This document shows positions 7,033 to 26,972 of a stretch of 64,000 nt of DNA, one piece after another. How positions within the stretch are numbered: position 1 is the first letter of the stretch; every line of letters starts with the position of its first letter. The DNA comes from Candidatus Lutacidiplasmatales archaeon (GTDB lineage Archaea > Thermoplasmatota > Thermoplasmata > Lutacidiplasmatales > UBA184). Under the pieces are notes generated by a model, which worked only from the letters and a program-made list of their open reading frames with translations, did not search any database and was not told the DNA's origin. The DNA is taken from assembly GCA_044451945.1 (NCBI GenBank), contig JBIOKR010000002.1:4411-68410 (forward strand), written 5' to 3'. The translations under genes and the position numbers were made by a program.

Positions 7033-8145
7033 CTACGCACGGCTGGGGCGCCGGGCGAGGAGCACCCGGCCGCCGGTCGGGGCGGTCGTCTCCGGTTCCA
7101 CCGCCCGATTGACGGTGGTCTCGTTGATCACCACGAGCAGCGCGTGCCCGGTACCGAGCTCGGATAGGATCCGCTGGAATCGGGCCGCGTTCTCCCGGTC
7201 TCGGGAGCGTCCGATGAGCGAGCCGGAGAGCTCCGCGAGCTCCTGGGTCGCCGCGTGGACCCCCTCGAGGGCGTCGTCGGCCTCGCTCGCCGAGTTCGAG
7301 CTGAAAGCGCGCATCGTCGCCGTGAGCGTCGAGCTGAACCGGACGAGGAGTTGGCGGATCTCCTCGGCGTCCTTTCCCCGGGGGAGCTCGGCCGCCAGCT
7401 CCCGCCCGATCTTGGCGATCAGGTCCGCGATCACCTCGAGCATCTTGGCGACGAGCCGGTAGCCCATCTGGTAGTGGTGGCTCTGGACCCCGATCTCCCG
7501 TGCGATCTCGTGATCGTTGGCGGCCAGGAGGAGCTGGCGGGCCATCAGGAGGTAGAACCGGTCGACCTCCTCCTCGATGTTCGGGAGTTGACCGAGTAGC
7601 TGGGGGTCTGCGGTCTCGAGAGAGCGGGAGCAGACCTCGAGCTCGAGCTCGATCATGCGGACGACGCGGCTCTGCAGGCTCGAGAGCCGATGCTTGCTCG
7701 CATCGAGGAAGACCCGCACCTCGAGACGACGGGGCTCCTCCTCCACGAGGCTCATGCCGAGGATGCGGTGGGCGACCTCGGCGACCTTGGCGCGGACCTC
7801 GGGGGAGAGGTCGCTGCGGGCGGTGATCAGGATGCGGTCGTTGCCGGTGATGTACGCCCCGATGAGGAGTCTCGGAAGCAAGCTGGGCGTCGCGTCGCTC
7901 GCGTCGATCTGAAGGATCTTGAGATGCTCGGGGGAAGTGGCGCGCCCGGTCGCGATGGACAGCTCGAGGCGACCGTCGCCCAGGTCCCTGAGCTCGATCG
8001 GAGTCCCGGTCACTACCCCATGAGAACCGGTCCACGCCTTCGGGAGGGTGACGGCAAGCGAAGTGCGGCCGGTCCTCTGCACCCTTCGGACGTTCGTCTC
8101 TTGTTCCTTCGAAGGGAGCTCCGCGGCTTCGCTGGCGAGCATCAC
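7033..8145 (-). CDS. AbrB/SpoVT-PhoU fusion regulator (phosphate uptake regulator-like), paralog 1
   Basis: N-terminal swapped-hairpin motif RRVQRTGRTSLAVTLPKAW, followed by two PhoU-like helical repeats. Confidence 0.8.
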   Translation of the reverse strand: MMLASEAAELPSKEQETNVRRVQRTGRTSLAVTLPKAWTGSHGVVTGTPIELRDLGDGRLELSIATGRATSPEHLKILQIDASDATPSLLPRLLIGAYITGNDRILITARSDLSPEVRAKVAEVAHRILGMSLVEEEPRRLEVRVFLDASKHRLSSLQSRVVRMIELELEVCSRSLETADPQLLGQLPNIEEEVDRFYLLMARQLLLAANDHEIAREIGVQSHHYQMGYRLVAKMLEVIADLIAKIGRELAAELPRGKDAEEIRQLLVRFSSTLTATMRAFSSNSASEADDALEGVHAATQELAELSGSLIGRSRDRENAARFQRILSELGTGHALLVVINETTVNRAVEPETTAPTGGRVLLARRPSRA

Positions 8146-8376
8146 GGGGAACTTCCCGGTCCAGAGAATAAGGAGCAGGTCAGGCGGAGTTGACGAGGTG
8201 GTTACTCCCTGGGCTCCTTGCGCTCCTTACGCCAAGGAGGGTACCCACTTGCCACCCCTCTCCCTAATCCTCCCCAAGGAGGCGACCATGGAGACAACTC
8301 TGAGCCGAGGGGCCGAGACGCAGCCGAACGCACTAGGAGGGGGCCGATAGGCCGACCTTCCGAGGAGAAGAGACCG

Positions 8377-9153
8377 ATGTTTATCGATAACCTCGCCCTG
8401 ACCGAAGCGCTCCTACTCTTCGCCGCCGCCGTGCTCACGTACGTGGGGCTCACCGCCTGGTGGGCGATGCGAAAGAACGATGTCGAAAAGGTGAAGGCGG
8501 CGATCCGAGGCGGCGCGGGCCCCGTCGGGGCGGTCGGCGTCACCGCGGTCGTACTAGGCTTCTGGTCGGAAATGGTGTGGCCGTACCCTTCGGTGATGGG
8601 CGGCTACAACATCCTGTTCAACGACATCACGGTCGTCTTCGGCATCGTGATGGTGTCGTTCGCGGCCGTGGCGTACCTCCACCTACGCCTGCAGTACGTC
8701 GGGGTCCTGGCGTTCATGGCCGGGGCCGTGACCGTGCTCTACGGATGGACCGCCTACGGATTCCACTACACCAAAGAGCCGTTCGACTTCCTCCTCCTCT
8801 ACCTGGGATTCGGAGCCGCGGGGATCTTCTCGCTGCCGGCCACGGCGATCGTGGACCACTACCTCGAGAACGTCTCGAAGAGCGACACCCTCTGGCGCAC
8901 CGACTCGAGCAGCGTTTCGACCCGCCGGTTCCTCGGGATCCGGGCGGTCGCCAAGTTCGCCGGTTCCACCACCTCTAACGACAGCGAGGCTTCGGGAGAC
9001 GGAGGCGCTCCCAAGCTCGCGTTCCGGATGCCGCTGTACTACCACGTGATCCTGCTGGCGTTCCCCCTGTTCATGGCGCTTGCCGGCTTCGCCGCGTGGT
9101 GGTTCCTCGGCACCACGATCCCGGGTCATTTGACCCCGGGACAGACCCCCTGA
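8377..9153 (+). CDS. Multi-pass membrane protein (archaeal DUF981-like), paralog 1
   Basis: ATG 8377 inside ORF 8218..9153. About 6 TM helices. Paralogous to 26973..27707, sharing TAYGFHYT/TAWYGYWGYT and a C-terminal PGHLT motif. The DUF981 family name is recalled, not verified. Confidence 0.65.
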   Translation: MFIDNLALTEALLLFAAAVLTYVGLTAWWAMRKNDVEKVKAAIRGGAGPVGAVGVTAVVLGFWSEMVWPYPSVMGGYNILFNDITVVFGIVMVSFAAVAYLHLRLQYVGVLAFMAGAVTVLYGWTAYGFHYTKEPFDFLLLYLGFGAAGIFSLPATAIVDHYLENVSKSDTLWRTDSSSVSTRRFLGIRAVAKFAGSTTSNDSEASGDGGAPKLAFRMPLYYHVILLAFPLFMALAGFAAWWFLGTTIPGHLTPGQTP

Positions 9154-10194: not shown

Positions 10195-10399
10195 CGTGCT
10201 GGTTTCAGCAGTACCCGGCCCCTCGTCTCCCTTGCGGGGGTCCGTGAATCTCGATCCCCGCCCAAGAGGCGGCCTGCGGGAGAGCTGTCCACGGGTACCC
10301 TGGCCCCACCGGCTTCCCCAGCGAACCGGATCCCCTGCGGTGGTCACTACCTTCCACGCGCGGACCGCAGGGTAGTGTGGCCCCCGAACCCCTTCATTG

Positions 10400-10460
10400 T
10401 CTATAGTGGCGCATGTTACTATATACTAACCGGCTGGCCTGCTTAACTACCATATATGCC
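10400..10460. promoter_or_regulatory. AT-rich divergent promoter region with two TATA-like boxes (tactatatact; accatatatg) between the MBL hydrolase and AbrB-PhoU genes
   Basis: Local AT-rich island in a 68% GC background. A TATA box lies about 40 nt upstream of the ATG at 10493. Confidence 0.45.
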
Positions 10461-10492
10461 TCTGAATCGCGCTCCGAATTACGGGAATACCC

Positions 10493-11509
10493 ATGGAGGG
10501 TCGAAAGCTGCAATTGGCGGGAGGTTCGACGTACGTCATCTCGCTGCCCAAACGCTGGGTGACGCACGCCGGGCTCAAGGCGGGCGACACCCTGTTCGTC
10601 GACACCGAGGCGGACGGGGCGATCTCGGTCCGCTCGCAGGCCGCCACGAAACCGGCGGTCCGTCGCAAGGTCTTCGAGGAGAAGGGCGAGGAGGCCCGGG
10701 AGCACCTCCTTCGCAAGCTGATCGGGGCGTACATCTCGGGGTACGGGCTTATCGAGATCCGTTTCTCGGCCGACAGAGGCCCGTTCGTCCGCCGTGTCTC
10801 CCGGGACTTCTGCCGCCTCGTGGTGGGGCCCGAGGTCGTCGAGGAAGGGCCGAACGCCCTCCTGATCCAGGACCTCTCCGATTCCTCCGAGCTCAGCACG
10901 GAGAAGTGTCTGCGCCGGATGCACCTCGTGGTCCGCGCCATGCTCGACGACGCGATCGTCGCGCTGCGGACGGGCCGCGCGGCGCTCGCCCACGACGTGG
11001 TCCAACGGGACCAGGACGTCGACCGCCTCTACTGGATGGTCGCCAAGCAGTACCACCTCACGCACACCGCCCCCGGGCGGGCGACCGACGGGGAGGCCGT
11101 GGCGGCGATCCACGCCCACCGGCTCGTCGCGAAACTGCTCGAGCGGATCGGCGACCACGCCGAGCGCATCGCGGGCACGTTCTCGACGATTGTCGAAGGA
11201 AAGGTGATCGATTCGAAGCTCGGAAAGGACCTGGAGGAGGCGAACGCCTCTGCGATCGCCATTCTCGACAAGGCGTTCCGGGCCCTCGTGACGGGGAACA
11301 TCGACCTCGCCAACGAGGCGATCGACGCCCGGGGCCCGCACCAGAAGCTCATAGACACGCTCTCGCACCGGGTCGCGACCCGCAAGGGCGAGGAGCTGCT
11401 CGCCCTGGGAGCGGTCGTCGACAGCCTCGGACGGACCGCGAGCTATGCCACCGACATCGCCGAGCAAGCGATCAATCTCGCCGTCCTTCAGGACGGAAAG
11501 CCGTCGTAG
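10493..11509 (+). CDS. AbrB/SpoVT-PhoU fusion regulator, paralog 2
   Basis: N-terminal LQLAGGSTYVISLPKRWV (AbrB swapped hairpin), followed by PhoU repeats. TATA-like 'accatatatg' sits about 40 nt upstream. Confidence 0.8.
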   Translation: MEGRKLQLAGGSTYVISLPKRWVTHAGLKAGDTLFVDTEADGAISVRSQAATKPAVRRKVFEEKGEEAREHLLRKLIGAYISGYGLIEIRFSADRGPFVRRVSRDFCRLVVGPEVVEEGPNALLIQDLSDSSELSTEKCLRRMHLVVRAMLDDAIVALRTGRAALAHDVVQRDQDVDRLYWMVAKQYHLTHTAPGRATDGEAVAAIHAHRLVAKLLERIGDHAERIAGTFSTIVEGKVIDSKLGKDLEEANASAIAILDKAFRALVTGNIDLANEAIDARGPHQKLIDTLSHRVATRKGEELLALGAVVDSLGRTASYATDIAEQAINLAVLQDGKPS

Positions 11510-11519
11510 CGCCCGGGGA

Positions 11520-12536
11520 TCAACGCGGGGACGCTTTCGCCCGGATCTCCGGGGTCGCCGGAAGTGAGGCGAGGCTCGGGGGGGCCTGGGGGAGAATCTT
11601 CGGTACGGCGCCCGAAGTGTCGAGCGTCGTCGTGGGGGGTATCGCCGCAGCGACCGTATCGGCGTCCACCCGGTAGGCGCGGTGCTCCACCGCGTATTCG
11701 AGCGCCCGGTCGGCGAGCTCCACGAGGCGTCTCGGGTTGGCCTGAGCGGCCGAGTTCAGCGCCGCCGCCGCATCCCGGTCGTACGGATAGAGCGGGTCGA
11801 GGTTCTGCACGATCCGCTTGGCGAGCAACTTCTTGGCGAGGAGGAGTGCCGCCTCGTCGATCGACAGGGTCGGCAGGAGGAACGTCCGGTTGATCCGGGA
11901 GCTGAGCGCCGGGTAGTTCGCGCCGAGCGTGACGAGAAAGCTCGGGGTGCAGCCGAACATCACGAGCGCCCCGGGCTTGAGCTCATCGCCGAGCTCCTGC
12001 AGGGCCTTGACGAACAGGTCGGAGTCCGGCATCTTCGCGACGTTCTGGAGATCGTTCAGGAGGAGGAACGACGGCGCGTTCATGTTGAGGGCGGCCGCGA
12101 GGACGTGCCCGGCCTGCCCCGGGTCGTACTTGCCGTCCTTCGACTTCTCGAGGGCGGTCAGCTGACGGTACCACGCCGGGGGGTTGAAGATCTTCGCGAA
12201 CCCCTTGAGATTCTTCGCGGCTTGGAACTCGTGGGCCAGGAGGGGCATGGTCAGGCCGGCTTTCTCGGGGACGTCCAGGTAGACGCAGTAGGCGCCCCGG
12301 TCCTTCGCCTGCGCCTGGGCGAGCCGAAGGCGGTGGGTCTTGCCGGTCCCCAGGCTGCCCACCAGCGCCACCAGGGCCTTGTTCTCCTTCTCGAGGACCT
12401 CGTCCTTGATGGTGTTGAGCGACTCGTCGATCTGAAGGTCGACGTGGAAGACCTCGATGTCCTCGAGGCTGTCGCTCGTCAGGTCTCGGAACGGGTTTCC
12501 CGTGAGACCGTATCGCTCGTACGAACCGCCCGGCAT
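11520..12536 (-). CDS. P-loop NTPase (AAA+-like), function unknown, in operon with the KaiC/FlaH-like gene
   Basis: Walker A GSLGTGKT and Walker-B-like LLLNDL. It lies 14 nt downstream of 12551..13180 on the same strand. Confidence 0.55.
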   Translation of the reverse strand: MPGGSYERYGLTGNPFRDLTSDSLEDIEVFHVDLQIDESLNTIKDEVLEKENKALVALVGSLGTGKTHRLRLAQAQAKDRGAYCVYLDVPEKAGLTMPLLAHEFQAAKNLKGFAKIFNPPAWYRQLTALEKSKDGKYDPGQAGHVLAAALNMNAPSFLLLNDLQNVAKMPDSDLFVKALQELGDELKPGALVMFGCTPSFLVTLGANYPALSSRINRTFLLPTLSIDEAALLLAKKLLAKRIVQNLDPLYPYDRDAAAALNSAAQANPRRLVELADRALEYAVEHRAYRVDADTVAAAIPPTTTLDTSGAVPKILPQAPPSLASLPATPEIRAKASPR

Positions 12537-12550
12537 CGAACCACCCGGAC

Positions 12551-13180
12551 CTACAGCACGCGCCGCCGCAGGTCCATCGCCATCCGTGTGCCATCAAAGT
12601 CATAATACACATTTCGGTCGACGAACTGCCCGTCGATCCATTTGGGAATTCGCAGGAAGCGGACGAGCCCCTCGGGCCCCTCCTTCGAGTGGAACTGGAC
12701 CACCCCATCCGAGAGATGGTTGGTCACCGCCTCGGCCCCGGGAGTGTGGATCCCGCGGTCCGTGGCGAGGAGCACCGTGGTCCCGTGCTCCCGGCAGAGG
12801 CCGCGCAGCCTCCGCATGAGACCGGCGAGGTCGGGCGTCTCGAGCTCGAGCGTGAGCATGGTGAACGAATCGAGCGCGAGGACGCCGTCCGAGCCAGCGA
12901 ACCCCTTGAGGTCGCGCAGCTCGTCGCGCTCCGAGATGTTCAGGCGCTGTGCCGCGTCGCCCGAGGGAACGCCCTCCCGCCGGAAGAGCGCCTCGACCTC
13001 GTCCCGCCCGCGGGTGGTGACGAACGAGACGCCCCCGTCCTGCCGCAGCGCGCTCAGGCAGAGCCTTCGCAGGAAGTAACTCTTGGCCGGATCCGGGCCG
13101 CTCTCGGCGACGAGCACCTGGCCCCCCCGGATCGTGGGGATGAGCGTGTCGAGGCCCGGGAGGTCGATCGGGATGTCCAT
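12551..13180 (-). CDS. RecA-superfamily KaiC/FlaH(ArlH)-like protein with degenerate Walker A
   Basis: Layout matches FlaH/KaiC (LDTLIPTIRGGQVLVAESGPDPAKSYF...VLALDSF). The P-loop is ESGPDPAKS rather than GxxGxGKS. Confidence 0.55.
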   Translation of the reverse strand: MDIPIDLPGLDTLIPTIRGGQVLVAESGPDPAKSYFLRRLCLSALRQDGGVSFVTTRGRDEVEALFRREGVPSGDAAQRLNISERDELRDLKGFAGSDGVLALDSFTMLTLELETPDLAGLMRRLRGLCREHGTTVLLATDRGIHTPGAEAVTNHLSDGVVQFHSKEGPEGLVRFLRIPKWIDGQFVDRNVYYDFDGTRMAMDLRRRVL

Positions 13181-13297
13181 CCCCGCCCCACGGGGTCAGC
13201 CGAGCATAACGATGCTATCGGTACACTACGGAAATGCCCCCCCATCTACGGTATCTATAGGGGGAGCGCGTATCCATCCCCCAAGGCTCGCCCCGGC

Positions 13298-14134
13298 ATG
13301 CGCCCGGTCCGTTCGAACCGCCGCGGGCTCTCCGAGATCGTCGGAACGCTCTTTCTCGTCCTCATCGTCGTCGGGGCGGCGACCGCGTTCGCCGCCTTCG
13401 TAGCGGGCTACCAGAAGCAGCTCCAGGCGGAGCAGCAGGCCGCGCACGAGAGGGCCCTCGAATCGATCCGGGTCCTCCACCTCACCCCGACCCCGAACGG
13501 GACTTCCGGGACCTGGGGGTGGCTCAACTTCTCCCTGGCGAGCCTCGACGTCAATCCGATCATCGTGACGAGCATCTCCGTGAACGACAACCCTGTGGCC
13601 AAGTACAACGTGAGTGGCCTCAACCTCTCGACCGGTACCTTCTGGAGCCAGACCGTCCTGGCCGGCGGGTACCTCTCGCTCTACCCCCGCGAGGCGTTCT
13701 CGGTGAACGTCAGCACCGCGAAGGGGCCGGCCCGCTCCGGTTTCTACGACCCCAACCTCACACTTTCTACCTCGAGCTATCTCAAGGTCGAGCTGTTCAC
13801 CTACAACAGCAACGCGTTCACCCAGACGTTCATCCCGCCGTCCGCGGTCGCCTCGATCAACTACCTGCAGACGTACAACGGCACCAACATCACGAACATC
13901 CCGGTGCTCGATGGGAGCAGCTCGTTCCAGCCGGGCAACGCGACGCTCGTCGCCTGGATCTGGACGGTCCATGAGAGCGCCCCCTCCGTCAAAACCTGGG
14001 GGCTCTCCGGGGAGAAGGTCGAGATGAGCAACCTCACCCGGGGCGGCTCGTACACGGTCGGACTCACTGTCGCCAACTCCGACGGGCTGCTCGGCCTGCT
14101 CAACCCGGCGCTATCGTTCGTCTATTCCGGGTGA
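13298..14134 (+). CDS. Class III signal peptide (type IV pilin/FlaF-G-like) secreted protein
   Basis: N-terminus MRPVRSNRRGLSEIVGTLFLVLIVVGAATAFAAFVAG matches the archaeal prepilin-like processing region. A coiled segment and a sequon-rich beta-rich domain follow. Confidence 0.55.
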   Translation: MRPVRSNRRGLSEIVGTLFLVLIVVGAATAFAAFVAGYQKQLQAEQQAAHERALESIRVLHLTPTPNGTSGTWGWLNFSLASLDVNPIIVTSISVNDNPVAKYNVSGLNLSTGTFWSQTVLAGGYLSLYPREAFSVNVSTAKGPARSGFYDPNLTLSTSSYLKVELFTYNSNAFTQTFIPPSAVASINYLQTYNGTNITNIPVLDGSSSFQPGNATLVAWIWTVHESAPSVKTWGLSGEKVEMSNLTRGGSYTVGLTVANSDGLLGLLNPALSFVYSG

Positions 14135-14161
14135 GGAGTCTCCCGCCCCTTCCTTCGCCCC

Positions 14162-15595
14162 TCAGGCGAAGTAGAGGAAGGCAACGATCGTCACGATGAG
14201 AAGCACGATCGAGTGGGTGAGGCCGTACCGGGCCTTCCCCTCGGTGAACGCCCCGATGATGATTCCGGTGCCGATCGAGTTGATCATCATCAGGTCGAAG
14301 AATCGCTGCTCGAGGGTGCCGAACGCCAGCTTCGGGATCGCGGCGGTTCCGCCGCTCTTGATGGAGGAGAGGGGGTTCCCTCCACCCCCCGAGAAGAAGG
14401 TGAGGCTGACGCCCCCCAAGGAAGGGGCGATGCTGAGCAGCGAGAAGAGGACGGCCATGAGCACCCCGAAAGCCACGTAGAGGACGGCGATCGGAAGGAC
14501 GAGCGCGTTTCGGCGCTCGAGGTCGATCTTGATGAAATCGTCCAAGTCCTTCGCCGCCCGATGGATGACCGACGCGGTCTCGCCGCCGATCGTGGAGGCA
14601 TCGGCGATGAGCTCGGCGTAGCGCGTGATGAGCGGGCTCTTCATCGGCACCGCCATGTTGCGGAGCACCTGGTCGAACGGTCGTCCGATGCGGACCCCGT
14701 CGGCCGCCACCTTGAGCGGCTTCTTCAGGATGTCCTGGTGCGTGGTCGACAGCTCGAGCAGGGCCTTGGCCGGGTCGAGCCCGCCCCGCATGGCGTCCGC
14801 CATCTCGAACAGGAATTGGGCGAACGAGCGCTCAAAGGCCCGCAGCCGGGTGAGCTCCCGGTTCGAGTCGACGGTGAACGCCGTGATGGCCACGAAGAAG
14901 CCCGCGATGACGACGTACTCGGGCGCGAGCAGGGGGAGCCCCGGGGTGCGAAGGACGTAGGTGAGTCCAAAGAGGATGACGAACACCGCGATGATCAGCG
15001 GGACGACGAGGACGAGGTACTCCTTGTTGACCGGGTGCGTGGCGAAGTACTTGTAGAACGCGAACCGCCGGGTGCGCTTGATGTAGAGGATGTACCCGCC
15101 GAACGCCCCGAGGCAGACCACGGCGCCGAGCGCGATGTCGATGACCACGCCTTCGAGGTTGAAGGAGAGCAGTGGACCCGAGGAGGAGCCCCCTGCGACG
15201 GTCGCGAACCCGAAAGAGATCTCGTTCGTGTGTCCGCTCGTGTCCGAGACGCTGATGTTGACGGTGTTGTTCCCGGAGCGCAGCTTGAAGATCGACGGGA
15301 CCTGGTAGGAGAGCTCCTTCGCCGAGATCCGCACGCCGTCGAAGCTCGTGACGTTCACGCCGTTGACGACGATGAAGACGCTCCCGGGATCGATGGTGCC
15401 GTTCGCATCGGAGTAGGTCACCGTGATGTTCGGCGTGAGGGTGTCGATCTGGGACCCGGGCAACGGGGAACTCGGCGTGATCGTGATCGGATTGGCGCTC
15501 GACTGCGCACCCCCCCCGGCGGCGATCGGTCCGGCGAGGAGGAGCCCCAGCGCAGCGATCAGCAGGAGGCTCGCGAGCTTCCTCACCGCGCTCAC
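14162..15595 (-). CDS. FlaJ/TadC-like polytopic membrane protein (T2SS-F domain) with an N-terminal signal peptide and ~150-aa extracellular domain
   Basis: Signal peptide LLIAALGLLLAGPIAAGG, then a sequon-rich soluble domain, then TM helices and a T2SSF-like region. Its start overlaps the upstream TadB-like gene by 4 nt. Confidence 0.6.
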   Translation of the reverse strand: MSAVRKLASLLLIAALGLLLAGPIAAGGGAQSSANPITITPSSPLPGSQIDTLTPNITVTYSDANGTIDPGSVFIVVNGVNVTSFDGVRISAKELSYQVPSIFKLRSGNNTVNISVSDTSGHTNEISFGFATVAGGSSSGPLLSFNLEGVVIDIALGAVVCLGAFGGYILYIKRTRRFAFYKYFATHPVNKEYLVLVVPLIIAVFVILFGLTYVLRTPGLPLLAPEYVVIAGFFVAITAFTVDSNRELTRLRAFERSFAQFLFEMADAMRGGLDPAKALLELSTTHQDILKKPLKVAADGVRIGRPFDQVLRNMAVPMKSPLITRYAELIADASTIGGETASVIHRAAKDLDDFIKIDLERRNALVLPIAVLYVAFGVLMAVLFSLLSIAPSLGGVSLTFFSGGGGNPLSSIKSGGTAAIPKLAFGTLEQRFFDLMMINSIGTGIIIGAFTEGKARYGLTHSIVLLIVTIVAFLYFA

Positions 15596-16548
15596 TCCGC
15601 CCTTCCGTAGGCCATCGAGATCGCGATCGAGGTCGCCGCCACGGCGGCCGGCATGAGACCGTACGTGAGGAGCAGGAGGAGCTCGTTCGCGTCGAGGCCG
15701 GCGGCCGTGCTCCCGAATGCGTTCAAGAGGAACGCCGCGACGGCGATCATCAGGACGCCGACCATCACGAGGCTCACGTACATGTCGACGAACGTCTGCA
15801 GGCGGACGATGAACTCCTTCTGGGCGTCGCGCTTGAGCTTGAGGACGTCCCCGGACTTGGTGCGCAGGTACTCGTCGAGGTCGCCCCCCTGGTGGATCAT
15901 GTTGGCGAGGTCCCAGAGCGATTCTCGAAGGGACGGGGAGGGGGACTCCTTCGCCGTCTCGGCGAGCGCGGTGATGAGGTCCTTTCCCTGGATGTCCGTC
16001 TTGTAGACGATCCGCTTGAACTCCCCGGTCATCTGCGGATCGTGGCGGCGGTTGGCCATCCGACGGACAAGCTCGATCGGGGACATGCCGGTGCTCGCCA
16101 GTACGGACAGCTCGCTCAGCGTGAACGGGAGCTCGCGCTCGAGCTGCGTCTTCCGGTTCGCGATGCGGGTGCTGACGATCGACTGGAAGGCGAGGAGCGT
16201 CGCACCGACGCCGACCAGGGTGATCAGCGCGACGTAGCCGTACCAGAAGGAGACGTGGATGAGGACGGTGAACAGGAAGAGCCCGACCGCCAATACGCCG
16301 ATCCCGGCGATCATCGCCGTGATCAGCATCTCGGCGTAGTGGAGGCCGACGGAGATGTTCACCCCGGCCTGCTTGAGCTGCTCGGCGAGCGATTCCGATT
16401 TGATGCGCTTGTCGAGGCGGTCACCTAGGAGCCGGTAGCAAAAGGCGCGGTACGCCTTGACGAACTGGTCCTCGGAGGGGACCTTCGGCTTGGCGATCGT
16501 GGTCCCGGTCGAACTGACCGCTCCGGAGGCTTCGGCGGGCTCGTACAC
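15592..16548 (-). CDS. FlaJ/TadB-like membrane protein (T2SS-F domain), first half of a split PilC/FlaJ
   Basis: Cytoplasmic helical domain plus TM segments typical of GspF/TadB. Starts 7 nt after the ATPase gene. Confidence 0.6.
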   Translation of the reverse strand: MYEPAEASGAVSSTGTTIAKPKVPSEDQFVKAYRAFCYRLLGDRLDKRIKSESLAEQLKQAGVNISVGLHYAEMLITAMIAGIGVLAVGLFLFTVLIHVSFWYGYVALITLVGVGATLLAFQSIVSTRIANRKTQLERELPFTLSELSVLASTGMSPIELVRRMANRRHDPQMTGEFKRIVYKTDIQGKDLITALAETAKESPSPSLRESLWDLANMIHQGGDLDEYLRTKSGDVLKLKRDAQKEFIVRLQTFVDMYVSLVMVGVLMIAVAAFLLNAFGSTAAGLDANELLLLLTYGLMPAAVAATSIAISMAYGRAE

Positions 16549-16554
16549 GCTCCC

Positions 16555-18378
16555 TCAACTGGCCGCGACCCGGTGCTCCAGGTCGCGAATCGCCCCGGCG
16601 GAATCGATGTAGTAAGAGGCGATCGCGCGGCTCACCTCCTTGAAGTACGAAAGATTCAGCTGGTTCATGAGCTCCAGATAGTGGGCCTTACCGTCCATCG
16701 ATTCCCTGAGCTCGGTGGCAGTGCGCCCCGAGGCCTTGGCGACCTTCTCGAGGACGAAGCTGCGGCCGAGCCAGTCGAACGCGTCCCGGACCGGGTCCCA
16801 CCGGAACACCTCGTTCGTCAGGAGCTCGTTCGTCGCCGCGTCGACCTCGAGGACCTCGGTGATCGTGGTGACGCGACGCACCCGGAGGTCCCGGATCGCC
16901 ACCTGGGCGGGGAAGGCGACCGTGTCCAGGGCCTGGAAGAGGACCCGGGGGATGTTCATCGGCTCGTTTTCCACCCGGTGAAGAAGCTCGCCGATCGAGC
17001 CCGCGTGCACGGTCGACATCGACGCGTGGCCCACCGAGATCGCCTGGAAAAGTGTGAACGCCTCCGCGCCCCGGACCTCTCCCACGATCACGTACTCCGG
17101 GCGCTGGCGCAGCGCGGCCACCAGAAGGTCGAACAGGGTGACGCTGCCCGGGGCCTTGAGCGCCGAGGCGCGGCCCGTGATCCCCGAGACACCGGAAGCG
17201 CCGGCGCCCATGCCGTAACCCGACCGGGCGATCGACTGGATCCAGTTCTCATGGTCGATGTGGATCTCCGGGGTGTCCTCGATCGAGACGATCTTGTCCT
17301 CCGGCCGGATGAACATGCTGATGGCGTTCAGGAGCGTCGTCTTGCCGCTCGCCGTTCCCCCCGAGATCAGGATGGAGCGGTGATTCTCGATGAGCGTCCA
17401 GAAGTAGGCGAGCTGCGCGGGGGACATCGAGCCGAAGCGCATCAGGTCGATCGGGGAGACCGGGTCTTGGGCAAACTTCCGGATGCTGAAGGTGGAGCCC
17501 TTGCGCGTCACCTCCGTCCCGAGGGTCAGGTTGACGCGGCTTCCGTCACGCAGCGTCGCGTCAAGGATCGGCTGGTAGATCGATACGTGCTTCCCTGAGA
17601 TCTGGGCGAGCCTCAGTACGTACTTGTTGAGCTCGAACTCGCTTCCGTACTGTACATTGGAACGAATAGAGCCGAAGACCCGGTGAAAGACGTAGAGCGG
17701 CACCTCGGGCCCGAGGCAGCTGATATCCTCGAGGAACGGGTCACGCATCACCGCGTCCGCCCGTCCCATCCCGACGAAATCGCGTTGGAGGTAGTACATC
17801 ATCACCGGGCGCCGACGCGGCGCCACGTCGATGTCGTAGAGGTCGAGGACGGTGAGGAACCGGCTGTCCAGGTACTTCCGAAGCTCCGGGGACTGGTCGA
17901 GCCCGATGCGCCCGACGACGGGGAGCTCCTCCTGCCCCATGATCACCTCCATCTTGTCCCGGATGGCCGAGATTTTGGCGGACTCGCCCTCGTGGAGCGT
18001 CGGTTCGAGGCAGGTGTACATCCACTCTTCCGAATCGGTATCGAAAGCGATGTGCACGAAGGCGTACGGCGGATTGACCGGATAGGTGACGTTCACCTTC
18101 CGACGGTCGCCCAGAAGTTGCCTACGCATGTAGCCGATCTCGGAGGCGACCAGTACCTTCTCCGAGAGCAACGGCCGCCGGGTGTAGAGGGCGTCGAGCT
18201 TCGCCGATTCCTGTAGCAGCGTGGCCCGGTCCTTCGGCAGGAGCTTGCGGCGCACCGAACGGGCTAAGGCGAGGGGGGAGCCCGTCGAACGATGCCCAAT
18301 TGACGCCTTCGAATCGGCACTCCCGGCCACGTCGCCGAGATACCGGAACGCTCGGTTAAGCGGACCCCACGGAATCAC
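16555..18378 (-). CDS. FlaI/PilB/GspE-family secretion ATPase (607 aa)
   Basis: Walker A GGTASGKTT, Asp box VSIEDTPEI, Walker B/His box ...PEYVIVGEVRGAEAF...VGHASMSTVHA. A Gly/Ser-rich insertion (SGYGMGAGASGVSGITGRASALKAPGS) precedes the TLFDLL helix. Confidence 0.85.
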   Translation of the reverse strand: MIPWGPLNRAFRYLGDVAGSADSKASIGHRSTGSPLALARSVRRKLLPKDRATLLQESAKLDALYTRRPLLSEKVLVASEIGYMRRQLLGDRRKVNVTYPVNPPYAFVHIAFDTDSEEWMYTCLEPTLHEGESAKISAIRDKMEVIMGQEELPVVGRIGLDQSPELRKYLDSRFLTVLDLYDIDVAPRRRPVMMYYLQRDFVGMGRADAVMRDPFLEDISCLGPEVPLYVFHRVFGSIRSNVQYGSEFELNKYVLRLAQISGKHVSIYQPILDATLRDGSRVNLTLGTEVTRKGSTFSIRKFAQDPVSPIDLMRFGSMSPAQLAYFWTLIENHRSILISGGTASGKTTLLNAISMFIRPEDKIVSIEDTPEIHIDHENWIQSIARSGYGMGAGASGVSGITGRASALKAPGSVTLFDLLVAALRQRPEYVIVGEVRGAEAFTLFQAISVGHASMSTVHAGSIGELLHRVENEPMNIPRVLFQALDTVAFPAQVAIRDLRVRRVTTITEVLEVDAATNELLTNEVFRWDPVRDAFDWLGRSFVLEKVAKASGRTATELRESMDGKAHYLELMNQLNLSYFKEVSRAIASYYIDSAGAIRDLEHRVAAS

Positions 18379-18558
18379 CGTATTGTCCGTAGCGCACCGT
18401 CCGCGCCGGTTTCCTACGTTGGCCGGACGGCCGTCTACGGCTACTTCGCCGGCTTACCGTTTCTCTTTCGACCCGGGTTATGGGCGACGGGGCGCCTCCC
18501 CCACCGTGGCGCCGCGAGGCGCCGCGAACAGCGAAGGAAGAAGGAGGAAGGAGAGAGA

Positions 18559-19998
18559 ATGAGAGAAGGAAGAATTCGAAAGATCGTCGCGATTCGGCGG
18601 GCCCGCCTTCGGCGGGATGCGCTGGCCGTGTCGCCGGTGGTCGCCACGTTGATCTTGATCCTCGTGGCGGTCGCGGCGGCGGCCGCGCTGTACCTGTGGC
18701 TCGTGGCATGGCAAGGGAACGTGACGAACGGAGTCGGAACCCCGGGCGCCCAGACGACCCTCTACATCGGCGGTAGCTCGTCGGTGTACCCCTGGTCGCA
18801 GAAGGCCGTGGCGTGGTTCGAACAGAACCAGTCGGATGTCGCGATCAGCCTGAACCAGGGCGGAAGCGGCGCCGGTATGGCCGCGGTCTGCTCGGGCCAG
18901 GTTGACATCGGCGCGTCCTCTTCGCCCCAGACGTTCAGCGCCTTGACGGCGCAATACGGTTGCCCGCAGACGGTCGTCCAAGAGACGGTCGCCTACGACG
19001 CGGTCGACGCGATTGTCCCGTCAGGTAACGTCCACGGACTCGTCAGCATCAGCTGGGACACGATGCAGGCCGTCTACGTCGCCGGCGTCGGGGGAGCCCC
19101 CGTCCCGGTCCAGGCACAGACCAACCTTCAGTCCTCGTCCACCTACGCGATGGACGGATCGGCGATCACCGGCTTCGCGGGCTACGCCGCCCCGGCCGCG
19201 AGCGGGTTCGCGTGGGACCAGATCCCCGCGTGCTCGATCCCCACCGTGGCCACTACGTGCGTTGGCACGACCAATGAAGCCGTGAACGCGGGCGGAATCG
19301 CTGCGGGCGTCACCGCCGCATGCGGTGGAACGTACGCCGGTCCGGCCCTCTGCTACACGGTCGCGGGTTCGCCCTGCGGGTTTGTAGTCTGCGCGGGCGG
19401 AACCGGTGCCGGTACCGCCGCGGGCCAGAACGGAGCGACGATCCACGCCTGGCAGCGCCAGGACTCGGGCGGAACGACCCAGTCGTTCACCGCGCGGCTC
19501 CTCGGCGTGGGCACGTCCTCGGCCGCCTCGACCGCCTCGGTCGGGTTCGGCGGATGCGCCCCCACTGGCCAGCTCACGGACTGCGGGATCGCCGGCTCCC
19601 ACCAGGGATTCGGTAACCCCGGCGTGATCTCCGGCGTCTCCGGAGACAAGGACGGTCTGGGCTACGCGTCGGACGGCCTCGTGGTCGCGTCCGGCTCGGG
19701 CGTGGTCGCGGTGGCCTTCCAAGGAATTGGACAGGCGAGCCCGGTCTTCCCGACGGTCGCATCGACCATCGTCGCGGGCATCGTTGCGGGCAACGGCGGA
19801 ACGTACGGGGCCAACACCTACATCGGCTGGCGCCCGTTCATCTACGTCGAGGAGAAGGCCCCGACGGGTGAGGCGCTCCGGTATCTGCAGTACGTCATGC
19901 AGCCGGGCACCAACCAGGACATCGCCCTGGCCTCGAACGAGCTCAGCCCCTTCCAGCCGGGTCTGGCGGGCCACGTGCCGGTGACACCGATTCCGTAA
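18559..19998 (+). CDS. PstS-like phosphate-binding periplasmic-domain protein with an N-terminal archaeal type IV pilin-like (class III signal) segment
   Basis: N-terminus RRDALAVSPVVATLILILVAVAAAAALYLWL resembles pilin_N (AVSPVIGVIL..). It is followed by YIGGSSSVYPWSQKAVAWFEQNQSDVAISLNQGGSGAGMAAVCSGQVDIGASS, which is the PstS signature. A purine-rich 'aaggaggaagg' lies upstream. Confidence 0.65.
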   Translation: MREGRIRKIVAIRRARLRRDALAVSPVVATLILILVAVAAAAALYLWLVAWQGNVTNGVGTPGAQTTLYIGGSSSVYPWSQKAVAWFEQNQSDVAISLNQGGSGAGMAAVCSGQVDIGASSSPQTFSALTAQYGCPQTVVQETVAYDAVDAIVPSGNVHGLVSISWDTMQAVYVAGVGGAPVPVQAQTNLQSSSTYAMDGSAITGFAGYAAPAASGFAWDQIPACSIPTVATTCVGTTNEAVNAGGIAAGVTAACGGTYAGPALCYTVAGSPCGFVVCAGGTGAGTAAGQNGATIHAWQRQDSGGTTQSFTARLLGVGTSSAASTASVGFGGCAPTGQLTDCGIAGSHQGFGNPGVISGVSGDKDGLGYASDGLVVASGSGVVAVAFQGIGQASPVFPTVASTIVAGIVAGNGGTYGANTYIGWRPFIYVEEKAPTGEALRYLQYVMQPGTNQDIALASNELSPFQPGLAGHVPVTPIP

Positions 19999-20139: not shown

Positions 20140-20526
20140 ATGTCGATATGCGTGGACATGGCTACGTCGATCAGGGGTGGGAGGGTGCTCGACGAGCGCC
20201 TGGCCCGGCTCGGCGGAGAAGACGAGCTCTGCTGTGTGCCGGAGTATCGGGGTCTCGCCAGGGCCGTCCGGGAGTCGGAAGGATTCCCCGCGAGCCTGAA
20301 ACGGGCCAAGGCGCTCGCGGACGAGCACCGCCTTCTCGCGGTCGCACTTCTCAAGCGCCGCAAGGAGCTGTGCGCCTGCGAGATTCAGGCCGCTACCGGT
20401 CTCAGCCACGCCACCGTGAGCCACCACATGCGTGTCCTCGTCGATGCGGGCCTCGTAGAGGAACGCCGGCAAGGGAAGTGGATGTACTATCGACTGGCCG
20501 AGGGAGCCAGGGAGAACTTACCATGA
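20140..20526 (+). CDS. arsR: ArsR/SmtB-family metalloregulator
   Basis: ELCACEIQAATGLSHATVSHHMRVLVDAGLV carries the wHTH and metal-binding Cys. The start may instead be 20158. Overlaps arsM by ATGA. Confidence 0.8.
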   Translation: MSICVDMATSIRGGRVLDERLARLGGEDELCCVPEYRGLARAVRESEGFPASLKRAKALADEHRLLAVALLKRRKELCACEIQAATGLSHATVSHHMRVLVDAGLVEERRQGKWMYYRLAEGARENLP

Positions 20527-21317
20527 CGAAGAAGCAGGGAAATCTGGGCATCAACGAGGAGAGGCACGGCGCGGTCCGAGAGCGATACGGCGGCATCGCC
20601 GAAACTGGTGGATGTTGCGGCACCGGCTCCCCGGGCAGCTGCTGCGGGGACGCATCGGTCTCTTCCGAGCTCGGCTATAGCGCGAAGGAGCTCGAGAGCC
20701 TCCCGGAAGGTGCCAACCTGGGCCTGGGCTGCGGCAATCCGACGGCGCTCCTCGCCCTGAAGCCGGGGGAGGTCGTCCTCGACCTCGGGAGCGGCGCGGG
20801 GATCGACTGCTTCCTCGCGGCGAAGAGGGTCGGCGCCAAAGGCCGCGTCATCGGGGTCGACATGACGCCCGAGATGCTCTCGAAGACGCGGGAGAACGCC
20901 CGCAAGGGCGGATACAGGAACGTCGAGTTCCGGCTCGGGGAGATCGAGCACCTGCCGGTCGCCGACGGGTCCGTCGACGTCGTGATATCGAACTGCGTCA
21001 TCAATCTCGCCCCCGAGAAGGGTCCCGTCTACCGGGAGGCGTACCGGGTCCTCCGCGAGGGGGGGCGGTTCGCCGTCTCGGACGTCGTCGCGACTCGGCC
21101 GATCCGGGCCGCCGACCGGGCGAACCCCGCGCTCTGGAGCGCGTGCTCCTCGGGAGCGCTCGAGGTCAAGAAGGTAAAGTCGCTCCTTCGCGAGGCAGGT
21201 TTCGACAAGGTCGAGATCGAGCTCGCCCGGGGCACCGACACCCCGAGCTCCCTCAAGGACCAGGCATCGCTGGGGGTCGTGTCCGCCAGCATTCGCGCCA
21301 CCAAGACCGGGGGGTGA
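20523..21317 (+). CDS. arsM: Arsenite S-adenosylmethionine methyltransferase
   Basis: Cys-rich N-terminus (GGCCGTGSPGSCCGD) and SAM motif VLDLGSGAGID; C-terminal Cys present. Confidence 0.8.
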   Translation: MTKKQGNLGINEERHGAVRERYGGIAETGGCCGTGSPGSCCGDASVSSELGYSAKELESLPEGANLGLGCGNPTALLALKPGEVVLDLGSGAGIDCFLAAKRVGAKGRVIGVDMTPEMLSKTRENARKGGYRNVEFRLGEIEHLPVADGSVDVVISNCVINLAPEKGPVYREAYRVLREGGRFAVSDVVATRPIRAADRANPALWSACSSGALEVKKVKSLLREAGFDKVEIELARGTDTPSSLKDQASLGVVSASIRATKTGG

Positions 21318-21325
21318 GGCGGAAG

Positions 21326-21775
21326 ATGACTCGCACGGTCCTGTTCATTTGCGTCGAGAACGCCGGCCGCTCCCTCATGGCGGAGGCGATGTTCAACGCC
21401 CACCCTCCCGCCGGCTGGCACGCCATCTCGGCGGGGACCCAGCCGGCCTACGCACCGAACCCGAGGACGGCCACGATGCTCCAGGAGATCGGGCTCGAGA
21501 TCCCGGCCCATCCGCCGACCTTGCTCACCAACGATATGATGACCGAGGCAGGGGCCCGGATCACGATGGGCTGCCTCGACAGCGAAAGCTGCCCGGCGAG
21601 GCTCAAGACCCTCGAGGTGACGGACTGGGCGCTTCCCGACCCCGCGAAACTGGACGACGCCGGCTTCCGGGCGGTCCGGGACGACCTCGCCCGGCGGGTC
21701 GAGGGGCTCTCCCGGGATCTCGCCCTGCGCGACCGGATGCGGCCGCAGTTCGGTAGAAGGGAAACTCCGAGTTGA
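21326..21775 (+). CDS. arsC: Arsenate reductase, LMW protein-tyrosine-phosphatase family
   Basis: VLFICVENAGRS is the CX5R P-loop of LMW-PTP-type ArsC. Confidence 0.75.
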   Translation: MTRTVLFICVENAGRSLMAEAMFNAHPPAGWHAISAGTQPAYAPNPRTATMLQEIGLEIPAHPPTLLTNDMMTEAGARITMGCLDSESCPARLKTLEVTDWALPDPAKLDDAGFRAVRDDLARRVEGLSRDLALRDRMRPQFGRRETPS

Positions 21776-22425
21776 CGCGCCCGCTCCTCGAGCGCTGCGC
21801 CGCTGAGGCGGCCGGAACGTTCCTCCTCGTCGGGATAGGGACCGGAGCGATCGTCGCCGCGGCCAACGCCGGGGGCGTGTCCCAGTGGGTGATGGCCATC
21901 GCGTGGTTCGGGGCGGTCGCGCTCCCCGTCCTGGCGTTTGCGTTCGTGAGCGGCTCCCACATCAACCCGGCGGTCACCCTGAGCCTCGTCGCCGCGCGCC
22001 GATTTCCCCCGAGGGAGGCCCTGCCGTACGTCGGGGCGCAGCTCGTCGGTGCCTTTGCGGGCAGCGCCGTAATTTGGCTCGTCCTCGGGAACGCGGCCCA
22101 CCTGGGGGCCACCCTGCCGAGGAACGGGAACCTGCTCGCGACCTTCGCCCTCGAGTTCGCCTTCACCGCCCTGCTCATACTGACCGTGATGTTTCTCAGC
22201 ACCCCCGGAAAGATCCCCTCGCGATGGGAGCTGCTGCTCCCGGCGGGCGCTGTCGGGCTCTCCACATGGCTCATCGGACCCTGGACCGGCAGTTCCCTCA
22301 ATCCGGCGAGGACCGTCGCCCCGGCGGTGCTCTCGGGGGACTACGCCGGGATCTGGGTCTACTTCCTCGCCGTACCTCTGGCGGCGCTCGCCGTCGCCGT
22401 CACGTTCCGCAAGGCGGCGCCGTAG
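21772..22425 (+). CDS. MIP-family aquaglyceroporin (putative arsenite channel, AqpS-like)
   Basis: Two NPA boxes (HINPAV, SLNPAR) and 6 TM helices. TTG start overlaps the arsC stop (TTGA). Confidence 0.8.
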   Translation: MTRPLLERCAAEAAGTFLLVGIGTGAIVAAANAGGVSQWVMAIAWFGAVALPVLAFAFVSGSHINPAVTLSLVAARRFPPREALPYVGAQLVGAFAGSAVIWLVLGNAAHLGATLPRNGNLLATFALEFAFTALLILTVMFLSTPGKIPSRWELLLPAGAVGLSTWLIGPWTGSSLNPARTVAPAVLSGDYAGIWVYFLAVPLAALAVAVTFRKAAP

Positions 22426-24047: not shown

Positions 24048-24935
24048 ATGCTCGATCCTTCTCGCTGGGACGACGGGGCGATCCCGCTCGCTCCGCCGCT
24101 TCCCTCCCCGGAGCTCCTCGAGGAGCCTGACCTATCGGCACCGTCGCCGCCCCCGGAGGAGCTCGCCCGGATTGTCCGCAAGCGGCCGGGGGCGCGCCGA
24201 CGCAACCCGGCGACGCGCATCCTTCCCAGCGAACCGGCGCTCTTCGGCTGGCTCGCCGACCGTTTTTCCCCCGGGGAGGCGACCCTGTGGGCCGGCTCTT
24301 CCGCCGCGATCGAGCCGATGCTCGAGATGCTCTACGCCGGTTGCGCGCTCGCGGACGGGAGGGTCTCGCTGCTCGAGGGAGCGAACCGGTTCCATCCATA
24401 CCGCATCGGCGAGCGGGGCCGCAATCTCGGCGTCGCTCCCGAGGAGGTCCTCGAAAGGGTGCGGCTCGCCCGCGCGTTCACCGCCTACCAGCTGGTGGCG
24501 CTGGTCGACGCCTGGTCGAAGGAGGCCAAACGGAACCGGCCGACGCTGCTCGTCGCCCACGACCTTCCGGCGCTGTTCTTCACCGAGGAGGTCCCCGAGG
24601 CGGAGCGCGCTCCGCTCCTCACCTACGTTGCCGAGCGACTCTCGGAGGTCGTGAGCGAGACCGGTCTTCCGCTCCTCCTGACGCTCTCCGGCCCGCTCTC
24701 GCGCTTTCCCGGGCTCACGGAGAAGGGCCCGAGGTTCTTCGACTGGGTCCGGTTCCTGCCGGCCGGTGAGACCGGGATGAACGTCGAGGCGTTCCGCGAC
24801 GCTTCCCGACTGCGCTTGGTCACCCGGAGCGATGGGCAGCGCGGACTCGAGGAGTTCGCTTCCCAGGAGAATCAGGAGGTGATCATGTGGGGCGTACCGT
24901 CCCGACGTACCGCCAGGCGCTCGAGGAGCGGATGA
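24048..24935 (+). CDS. Hypothetical protein, possibly a RecA-superfamily (KaiC/RadB-like) homolog lacking a P-loop
   Basis: TLWAGSSAAIEPMLEMLYAGCALADGRVSLLE...TLLVAHDLPALFF resembles a RecA core with a degenerate Walker A. Confidence 0.35.
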   Translation: MLDPSRWDDGAIPLAPPLPSPELLEEPDLSAPSPPPEELARIVRKRPGARRRNPATRILPSEPALFGWLADRFSPGEATLWAGSSAAIEPMLEMLYAGCALADGRVSLLEGANRFHPYRIGERGRNLGVAPEEVLERVRLARAFTAYQLVALVDAWSKEAKRNRPTLLVAHDLPALFFTEEVPEAERAPLLTYVAERLSEVVSETGLPLLLTLSGPLSRFPGLTEKGPRFFDWVRFLPAGETGMNVEAFRDASRLRLVTRSDGQRGLEEFASQENQEVIMWGVPSRRTARRSRSG

Positions 24936-26331: not shown

Positions 26332-26972
26332 CGGGACCGCGCCGGGCCGATCGGTCAACTGCGGTTGAGCGGGGTGCGGCCGCGGGGAAACGCCTGCGGG
26401 GCCGACTCCTCCTGGCACGAGGGGGCCCGCGCAGTGCCGCGTGCCGTCGGGGAGGGCGAGGAGGGGAGGTGACGAGATTCGTGATCTCCGAGTCGGCCGC
26501 GCGGACCCGGGGGGGCTCGCGACCGCGTGGAGCGCGAGGAGCCGAGCCTCGATGCGTGGGAGAGTCCTGTCAGGGCCGAGAGGGTCGTGGCGGCACTGCA
26601 GATGATTCCCGGTGTTGCGCCGGGGTCGACCTCCGTTCGCAGGGAGGTCTGGATTATCGGAGACGAACCTCCTCCGGGGCGGGCGCCCTCCCGGCCGTCC
26701 GAGCACCGGACCGCTGCCTCCCGCTCGGACCGGCACCCTGAGGAACCCCGAATCCCGCCCCGGCAGCATCGAGTCGGGGCGGGCGAACAGCCGGTCGGCA
26801 GTCAGGCGGTGTTCATCGCCGCGATTTTCGACGCGACAGCGCGACGATCGGGATCCCACCGGAGTCTCCACCGTACCGGTGCGGTGGTCGAGCGCGATTG
26901 ACTTCCAGCTTATCCACTGAGTCCCTCCTGCCCGACTCAAGGGGTCCAAGCGGCCCCGAATTGGAGGAGAAC

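Follow-up and report, generated by a model that had tools for sequence, protein, structure and literature searches.

We analysed a window of 64,000 nucleotides from a Candidatus Lutacidiplasmatales archaeon (contig JBIOKR010000002.1; by the window we mean this whole stretch, to which all coordinates refer) and identified in it a conserved module of eight genes, which encodes a type IV pilus (T4P)-like machine, two accessory ATPases, a regulator and a homologue of the phosphate-binding protein PstS with a pilin-like N-terminus, here called PstS-pilin. The locus is probably a phosphate-specific, bindosome-like type IV filament (TFF) system. This reading builds on features established here, namely the identities of the genes, the PstS fold, the conservation of the signal and helix, the obligate synteny of the module and its frequent fusion with pstCA genes. 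Coding frames in the window, which has a G+C content of 66-70%, were chosen by G+C content at third codon positions (GC3), and the open reading frames (ORFs) were scanned against Pfam and NCBIfam. All of the genes named in an earlier, sequence-only reading of this DNA (a FlaI/PilB-like ATPase, a split platform, a pilin, a KaiC-like protein with a degenerate Walker A motif and a second P-loop ATPase) were recovered in place by these profile searches.

The PstS-pilin gene (18559-19998, + strand) encodes a protein 100% identical to NCBI MFI5417404.1, from a 'Candidatus Lutacidiplasma' Thermoplasmata metagenome-assembled genome (MAG). The protein contains, in order, a basic leader of about 23 residues, a predicted cleavage site (A|VSPVV, in which the bar marks the cut), a 28-residue pilin helix, a linker of about 12 residues and a PstS-fold domain. 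In an alignment of 31 homologues with 46-74% identity to the window protein (A1), the same layout was found across the family, with a basic leader, the site [KR][AG]|VSPVV, the helix, a short variable linker, and a PstS domain into which two variable, Cys-rich stretches are inserted. The sequence-only reading had placed a PstS-like domain with a pilin-like N-terminus divergent from the pilus ATPase gene, and both ends of the protein exceed the cutoffs of curated models, at 44.5 bits for PBP_like_2 of Pfam (cutoff 27) and 20.5 bits for TIGR02537 of NCBIfam (cutoff 20). The two divergent genes are separated by an intergenic region of 180 bp (18379-18558), which presumably contains the promoters of the ATPase operon and of the PstS-pilin gene, and which has a purine-rich GGAGG immediately 5' of the PstS-pilin ATG.

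The C-terminal domain of the window protein is, to judge from its predicted structure, a true PstS fold. The AlphaFold2 model (predicted local distance difference test, pLDDT, 74.6) shows a two-lobed domain, connected by a low-confidence linker to a helix at residues 26-53, and Foldseek ranked only phosphate-binding proteins among its top 40 PDB matches (E 1e-12, template-modelling score on the target up to 0.81). The family profile likewise matches solved PstS structures, with 4Q8R at 1e-11. Four anion-binding segments (IGGS[ST]S, GG[ST]GAG, GxxS and R..[SG]GT) are invariant or nearly so across the 31 homologues, and align to the phosphate-bound structures 4GD5/4Q8R; the phosphate-ligating positions, numbered after E. 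coli PstS, we take to be T10/F11, S38, D56, R135 and S139-G140-T141. The insertions (residues ~170-295) are rich in Gly, Ala, Thr and Cys and break up the PstS fold. Six cysteines (C111, C135, C273, C278, C333 and C342) are invariant in the family, suggesting that they may form disulfides.

The N-terminus of PstS-pilin is, as far as its sequence motifs can tell, a true pilin helix. The helix consensus, SPVVATLILIL[IV]AVAAAAALYLWLV[AGS]WQ, is essentially invariant in the 31 homologues and over about 40 species, and is preceded by [KR][AG]|V in 36 of the 40. Pairwise identity of the helix DNA at codon positions 1, 2 and 3 is 0.925, 0.997 and 0.590, respectively (40 loci), and the freedom of the third positions indicates purifying selection, rather than recent transfer. 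Starting exactly from VSPV, the family profile also matches the subunit of the Iho670 adhesion filament of Ignicoccus hospitalis (5e-7), whose mature N-terminal helix VSPV[IV]ATL... aligns with that of PstS-pilin, and the filament core 3J1R (1.5e-5). Iho670 differs in having a pilin head domain and no solute-binding fold, and we know of no transporter or regulator linked to it.

We investigated the conservation of the module in loci seeded with PstS-pilin, at one genome per species (66 loci), and separately in loci seeded with the ATPase in metagenome contigs, which carry no taxonomy (80 loci), mapping all window proteins onto both sets. A failure of PstS-like and FlaI/FlaJ-like orthologues ever to co-localise had been named beforehand as the result that would speak against the phosphate-linked reading. 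Every one of the 43 ATPase orthologues (identity of 60% or more, with at least 1 kb of upstream sequence) had a divergent PstS-pilin gene beside it, and conversely, of 49 PstS-pilin loci with 2.5 kb or more of upstream sequence, 41 had the ATPase gene divergent and no more than 1.5 kb away. Of 35 loci with an upstream flank of 9 kb or longer, 32 have all seven partner genes in the same order. The recurrence of this eight-gene order in dozens of species places the association of PstS-pilin with the machine far beyond chance, and extends the conserved unit leftwards, to begin at 10493 rather than 11520, with the regulator included by synteny.

The exceptions to this linkage are apparent second copies (L012, L038, L052 and probably L015), a partial contig (L069), and the Nitrososphaerales loci L064, L066 and L070, in which the gene order differs. 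Identity to the window protein is 63-72% for the ATPase, 35-60% for PstS-pilin and 33-48% for the pilin, and the exposed parts of the module are less conserved than its cytoplasmic parts. Two PstS-pilin loci were found in each of two MAGs: L027 and L032 (MFD09222.bin.2.161) both have the full machine, and of L034 and L038 (JOPF047) one PstS-pilin copy stands alone; such pairs may reflect either paralogy or a mixture of strains. Typical PstS-pilin genes were also found on contigs of 2.7-3.0 kb binned in bacterial MAGs of Acidimicrobiales and Acidobacteriaceae (L046 and L053), which are most likely mis-binned archaeal contigs.

We identified physical links between the module and genes of the Pst permease in many relatives. 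At L004, L013, L014 and L016, the next genes after PstS-pilin encode a canonical PstS (306 bits with TIGR00975, cutoff 205), then PstC and PstA. More distant loci (L127, L129, L131, L139/L140, L146, L148, L150 and L151), with ATPases 46-58% identical, contain an operon of a pstS with class III N-terminus, pstC, pstA, ATPase, TadB, TadC and pilin genes; a KaiC-like gene, and sometimes an AAA+ gene, lies near these distant operons. A search with the PstS of L146 retrieved class-III-type PstS proteins in cultured methanogens, and the same operon is present in Methanolacinia petrolearia (L152, CP002117), Methanosarcina siciliae (L153, CP009508, around 3.63-3.65 Mb) and Methanolobus tindarius (L154, AZAJ01000001), flanked in all three by AbrB-PhoU genes. 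The PstC and PstA proteins of the methanogen operons exceed NCBIfam equivalog cutoffs, the M. siciliae PstS starts with MLFKNDKA|VSPVVATL and lies above the TIGR02537 cutoff, and neighbouring proteins of about 370 residues start like the window pilin, for example with DNRG|VTVVFGTLLLIL.

Related arrangements were found in contigs binned to Nitrososphaerales/Thaumarchaeota. Three of these (L065, L066 and L070) have the order PstS-pilin-ATPase-TadB-TadC, and in the same three, as in L064 and L067, PBP_like_2 proteins with a AVSPVVATLILI N-terminus lie beside a FlaI-like ATPase, TadB/TadC and sometimes pstA/ABC genes, suggesting that the system may be spread across phyla. In the pstS-pstC-pstA-T2SSE-T2SSF-T2SSF operons (L152-L154, and also L146, L148, L150, L151 and L139/L140), the T2SSE pilus ATPase occupies the place usually held by pstB. 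No ABC ATPase gene was found at any of the 15 loci in which pstC-pstA directly abut the machine, in fetched DNA reaching at most 10 kb to either side, and less on short contigs. Where pstCA sets lie farther from the machine, an ABC ATPase follows in 12 of 12 Lutacidiplasmatales loci.

The motor and platform of the machine are encoded on the - strand. A FlaI/GspE-type hexameric secretion ATPase (16555-18378, - strand; Pfam T2SSE, 5e-33) is accompanied by two platform proteins, TadB-like (15592-16548, - strand; Pfam T2SSF, 9.2e-14) and TadC-like (14162-15595, - strand; Pfam T2SSF, 2.9e-12, residues 261-387), and the TadB-like gene shares its last 4 bases with the TadC-like gene, at the start codon of the latter. 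The TadC-like protein opens with about 150 residues ahead of its membrane domain, comprising a signal peptide and then an Ig-like ectodomain (about 130 residues), for which methanogen orthologues give a weak Big_1 match; the pilin or PstS could dock on this ectodomain.

The companion pilin (13298-14134, + strand) has a class III signal, RRG|LSEIVGTLFLVLIVV, and a sequon-rich, Ig/PKD-like C-terminal domain. PKD/Big domains are found in its relatives, and orthologues are present in the methanogen loci. The window copy matches Pilin_N and TIGR02537 slightly below the curated cutoff of each, and the family N-terminus R[GA]|[LI][SA]E[IV]VGTLMLVLIVV is kept in about 37 of the 39 loci with a pilin match, the other two being matched elsewhere in the protein. 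The locus contains two of the components by which archaeal TFF systems are generically recognised, a T2SSE ATPase with a T2SSF platform, all above Pfam gathering scores, and at least one pilin with a class III signal (the canonical RRG|LSEIVGTL, with a conserved family motif).

The best NCBIfam model for the motor ATPase is FlaI (NF058587, 397 bits), and a KaiC/ArlH-like protein is present in the module, as might be expected of a divergent archaellum whose archaellin had been overlooked. The FlaI score is nevertheless below the model's cutoff of 550, and the closest solved relative of the ATPase is the GspE of A. fulgidus (2OAP, 2e-111), ahead of FlaI (7e-76). The platform is split over two T2SSF genes, unlike the single-gene ArlJ, and ArlJ models give at most 62 bits against cutoffs of 400-570. 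No substantial ORF of the window matched archaellin of the ArlB/FlaB family (PF01917) or the ArlC-G families in Pfam or NCBIfam, archaellin is also unlisted among the Pfam families of the related loci, and the Lutacidiplasmatales have been reported to lack archaellum genes (PMC9287336). An archaellum is thus ruled out as far as sequence goes, with a vanishingly small chance left to it; the sequence-only reading, which had denied that this was a standard archaellum, was right on this point, and the profile searches of the window ORFs uncovered no canonical archaellum operon with a missed archaellin.

The module begins with an AbrB(SpoVT/MazE-fold)-PhoU fusion regulator (10493-11509, + strand; PhoU 1.6e-22 and MazE_antitoxin 1.5e-7 in Pfam), whose orthologues are 63-82% identical to the window protein, making it the most conserved gene of the module. 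In 11 of the 17 relatives with enough flanking sequence, the AbrB-PhoU gene lies directly downstream of pstC-pstA-ABC ATPase genes and is co-directional with them, which is the position of phoU in a pst operon. A second AbrB-PhoU paralogue in the window (7033-8145, - strand; PhoU 2e-6 and MazE 2e-5 in Pfam) is only about 25% identical to the module's regulator in relatives, has no orthologue at its own position, and is not a conserved part of the module. The sequence-only reading had the two regulators bracketing the locus; both in fact lie to its left, on the same side, and only that at 10493-11509 is conserved. We found no shared operator or Pho-box-like motif in the regions 10340-10500, 13175-13305, 18375-18565 and 8140-8225, only weak inverted repeats that are not shared between them. 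Two paralogous DUF981 membrane proteins are encoded at 8218-9153 and 26898-27707 (both + strand), the former between the two AbrB-PhoU genes.

Several observations weigh against the filament reading. The window copy (RRDALA|VSPVV) alone among the 40 species has Leu instead of Lys/Arg at position -2, making the cleavage of this PstS-pilin uncertain, and its processing may be impaired or relaxed. The NCBIfam PstS models score below cutoff (TIGR02136, 76 bits against 206), and about 130 residues of the Cys-rich insertions are modelled at pLDDT <50. Ser takes the place of E. coli Asp56, as it does in the PBP_like_2 class, and in the window copy Gly takes that of Ser139, which makes ligand specificity uncertain. 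In the predicted structure, a flexible, low-confidence linker joins the helix to the PstS domain and there is no classical pilin head, an arrangement that would also fit a simple membrane tether. The window contains no pstCAB genes, and no prepilin peptidase was found in it or in any fetched locus, in Pfam lists or in a crude scan of hydrophobic ORFs for GxGD. Finally, in some genomes additional PstS-pilin genes stand apart from any machine (L012, L038 and L052).

The linker and the stand-alone copies count in favour of the main rival explanation, in which the genes are merely co-regulated: the companion pilin, with its adhesin-like Ig/PKD domains, would form an ordinary adhesive pilus, for example for attachment to phosphate-bearing minerals or organic matter under starvation, and PstS would use its pilin-like helix as a mere anchor and serve the Pst permease independently. 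In its favour, too, class-III-signal binding proteins across archaea are usually encoded beside ATP-binding cassette (ABC) transporters and not beside TFF clusters (10.64898/2026.04.22.720090). We nonetheless regard co-regulation alone as unlikely. A plain anchor would need neither 28 invariant residues, maintained while third codon positions vary freely, nor a conserved [KR][AG]|V site, the adjacency of PstS-pilin and the ATPase is obligate (43/43), and in methanogens the machine genes are fused into pstS-pstC-pstA operons. The last two features argue for a direct functional dependence between PstS and the machine, which we interpret from its gene content as T4P-like, not an archaellum, and as linked in function both to phosphate regulation and to a PstS protein that starts like a pilin.

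Directly 3' of PstS-pilin, at 20148-22425 (+ strand), the window encodes an ArsM-like S-adenosylmethionine methyltransferase, a low-molecular-weight phosphatase/ArsC-like protein and an MIP aquaglyceroporin, which together look like an arsenic-detoxification cluster beside a binding protein of phosphate/arsenate type. We considered an arsenate-specific role for the module on this account, and rejected it: the cluster is not kept beside the module in relatives, and appears to be a local association or neighbourhood noise. The same cluster, the two large Cys-rich insertions and the substitutions at two canonical ligand positions would also suit a PstS-fold domain that acts as an adhesin or sensor, at the tip of a pilus or along it, and binds phosphate groups on minerals, nucleic acids or phosphorylated glycans, or arsenate, without feeding a transporter. 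This we judge improbable, given the near-invariance of the four anion-binding segments across the family, the true pstC/pstA genes that accompany the system in many lineages, and the absence of the arsenic-type genes beside the module elsewhere. On the side of an adhesin, adhesive appendages rich in PstS have reportedly been observed in Pseudomonas aeruginosa.

The nearest functional parallel to the filament reading is the bindosome of Sulfolobus/Saccharolobus (BasEF and BasABC; GlcS, AraS and TreS), in which a T4P-like ATPase and platform serve ABC binding proteins with class III signals, together with accessory pilin-like proteins, and in which BasEF is needed for the function of sugar-binding proteins of this kind (PMC3047682). 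Genes for such components are also present at the PstS-pilin locus. The two machines are not orthologous: the motor ATPase reaches 169 bits against the BasE model (cutoff 1000), and the TadB-like protein 20.6 bits against BasF (cutoff 1300), with its ArlJ (62 bits) and UpsF (40 bits) scores also far under cutoff, and we therefore rejected Bas orthology. The systems also differ in layout, as the binding proteins of Sulfolobus are encoded far off, with their transporters, whereas here the binding protein, machine, regulator and often pstCA form one conserved gene block. The substrate is sugars in the bindosome, and is predicted to be phosphate here; three small pilins in the former contrast with one large Ig/PKD pilin in the latter, which additionally has KaiC-like and ExeA-like ATPases and a split platform.

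Sivabalasarma and Albers (bioRxiv 2026, 10.64898/2026.04.22.720090) have generalised the bindosome hypothesis to 4364 class-III-signal binding proteins across archaea, including euryarchaea, proposing that these enter TFF-made filaments for scavenging; the text of that preprint does not mention phosphate or PstS. Set against this general hypothesis, the PstS-pilin system is a case in which all the partners are genetically joined.

A further precedent is bacterial. Pseudomonas fluorescens encodes Psp/DING, a PstS homologue, beside its hxc cluster, and secretes it mainly through the Hxc type II system under phosphate limitation (PMC2225411). As at the PstS-pilin locus, a machine of the TFF superfamily thus adjoins the gene of a PstS homologue, whose extracellular function needs Hxc (PMC2225411), which raises the question of whether the archaeal module is a secretion device of this type, with a companion-pilin pseudopilus that releases soluble PstS into the medium. 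However, Hxc crosses an outer membrane, and its PstS homologue is a soluble, Sec-dependent cargo and not a pilin-type subunit. PstS-pilin has no Sec-type signal and itself bears the pilin helix, which class III cleavage would leave attached, and this group of archaea lacks an outer membrane that would need crossing, such that an Hxc-like role seems very improbable.

Two accessory nucleoside triphosphatases are encoded between the regulator and the pilin. The first is an AAA_22/ExeA-like AAA+ P-loop ATPase of 338 residues (11520-12536, - strand; AAA_22, E 1e-5), with Walker A (GSLGTGKT) and Walker B motifs in its AAA_22 core, a conserved N-terminal motif YGLTGNPF, and an initiator-clade fold in structure prediction made on database homologues. 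No transmembrane segment or peptidoglycan-binding domain was detected in this protein. It shares its AAA_22 core with ExeA/GspA (COG3267), but not the peptidoglycan-binding domain or the partnership with ExeB and a secretin; secretin is absent, as expected in archaea.

The second is a single-domain protein of the KaiC/RecA superfamily (12551-13180, - strand), assigned by a family profile and Pfam KaiC. Taken alone, the window protein matches KaiC weakly (E 3e-4), while 15 of 15 members of its family match Pfam KaiC, and the family profile (A3) matches, in the PDB, SSO2452 (2e-11), PH0284 (5e-10), KaiC (3e-8) and FlaH/ArlH 4WIA (1e-5). Its Walker A motif is deviant, ESGPDPAKS in the window and ESGxDPAKS as conserved in the family, with AKS replacing GKS/T; the Walker B motif is conserved. 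Another protein of the RecA/RadA/KaiC superfamily (24048-24935, + strand), with weak Rad51/RadA matches, is encoded 4 kb past the module, with no obvious link to it.

The sequence-only reading had regarded a KaiC/FlaH-like component outside an archaellum as unusual and the split platform as non-canonical. Both views need correction, as Makarova et al. (2016, PMC4858521) had already reported a strong association of KaiC-family ATPases with several T4P clades other than archaella, and a pair of tadC genes in clades 1 and 2. Euryarchaeal loci of this kind share with the PstS-pilin locus a VirB11/FlaI-family ATPase, two TadC-like genes, PilA-type pilins and a KaiC-like ATPase, and in Methanomicrobia the KaiC genes are co-transcribed with ATPase/TadC (PMC4858521). 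The main text of that study draws no link from such loci to phosphate, ABC transporters or PhoU, and a table-level listing in its supplement is possible.

The claim of an undescribed hypothesis stood only in part. The general concept, of a bindosome and of class III binding proteins in filaments, is already published (PMC3047682; 10.64898/2026.04.22.720090). For a phosphate-specific system that co-encodes binding protein, machine, regulator and often pstCA, we found no description in the literature searched, which was incompletely covered; within the same incomplete coverage, nothing specific was found on PstS with prepilin peptidase or class III signals, on archaeal AbrB-PhoU proteins, or on links between methanogen pst genes and FlaI. 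The central proposal of a phosphate-linked, bindosome-like or pilus structure was borne out by synteny, to the extent that a T4P-like machine is tied to PstS-pilin and to phosphate regulation, and its side claims on bracketing, unusualness and novelty were not.

From these features we infer a mechanism in which pilin-type precursors are cleaved and polymerised, phosphate is bound and delivered, and expression is regulated. Both PstS-pilin and the companion pilin would be made as class-III-signal precursors, inserted in the membrane via their N-terminal helices, and trimmed by a prepilin peptidase presumably encoded elsewhere. The FlaI/GspE-like ATPase, acting on the split TadB/TadC platform, would then draw these helices out of the membrane and polymerise them as a short fibre or pseudopilus, a step proposed because of the homology to T4P and bindosome machines and the invariance of the helix. 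The PstS domains of such a fibre would hang outside the cell on their flexible linkers, capture orthophosphate, and pass it to a PstCA(B) permease, which is gene-adjacent in many relatives but not in the window. The AbrB-PhoU protein would couple expression to phosphate status, and the KaiC-like protein and the ExeA-like AAA+ ATPase may modulate or scaffold the motor, by analogy with the action of ArlH on ArlI.

The bindosome has so far been poorly understood and known from the Sulfolobales only. That pilus machines assemble class III binding proteins elsewhere too finds in the PstS-pilin block its strongest genomic argument so far, since dozens of species in several phyla inherit a binding protein, machine, accessory ATPases, regulator and often permease genes together. 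It is notable that pstB is repeatedly missing from machine-attached pstSCA sets. We put forward, only as a speculative possibility, a widespread and unrecognised class of archaeal TFF machines for phosphate acquisition, in Thermoplasmatota, Methanomicrobia (including Methanosarcina) and Nitrososphaerales, in which PstS is itself a polymerising subunit and the machine is integrated with the PstCA permease, the ATPase/platform genes taking the place of pstB in many lineages. If this is true, a dynamic fibre or pseudopilus would catch phosphate away from the membrane and deliver it to the permease as its subunits cycle back. The hypothesis is directly testable, since homologous operons are present in methanogens in culture, within a genus for which genetic tools exist, and the ecological role to which the system points would be phosphate scavenging in phosphate-poor acidic soils and methanogenic habitats.

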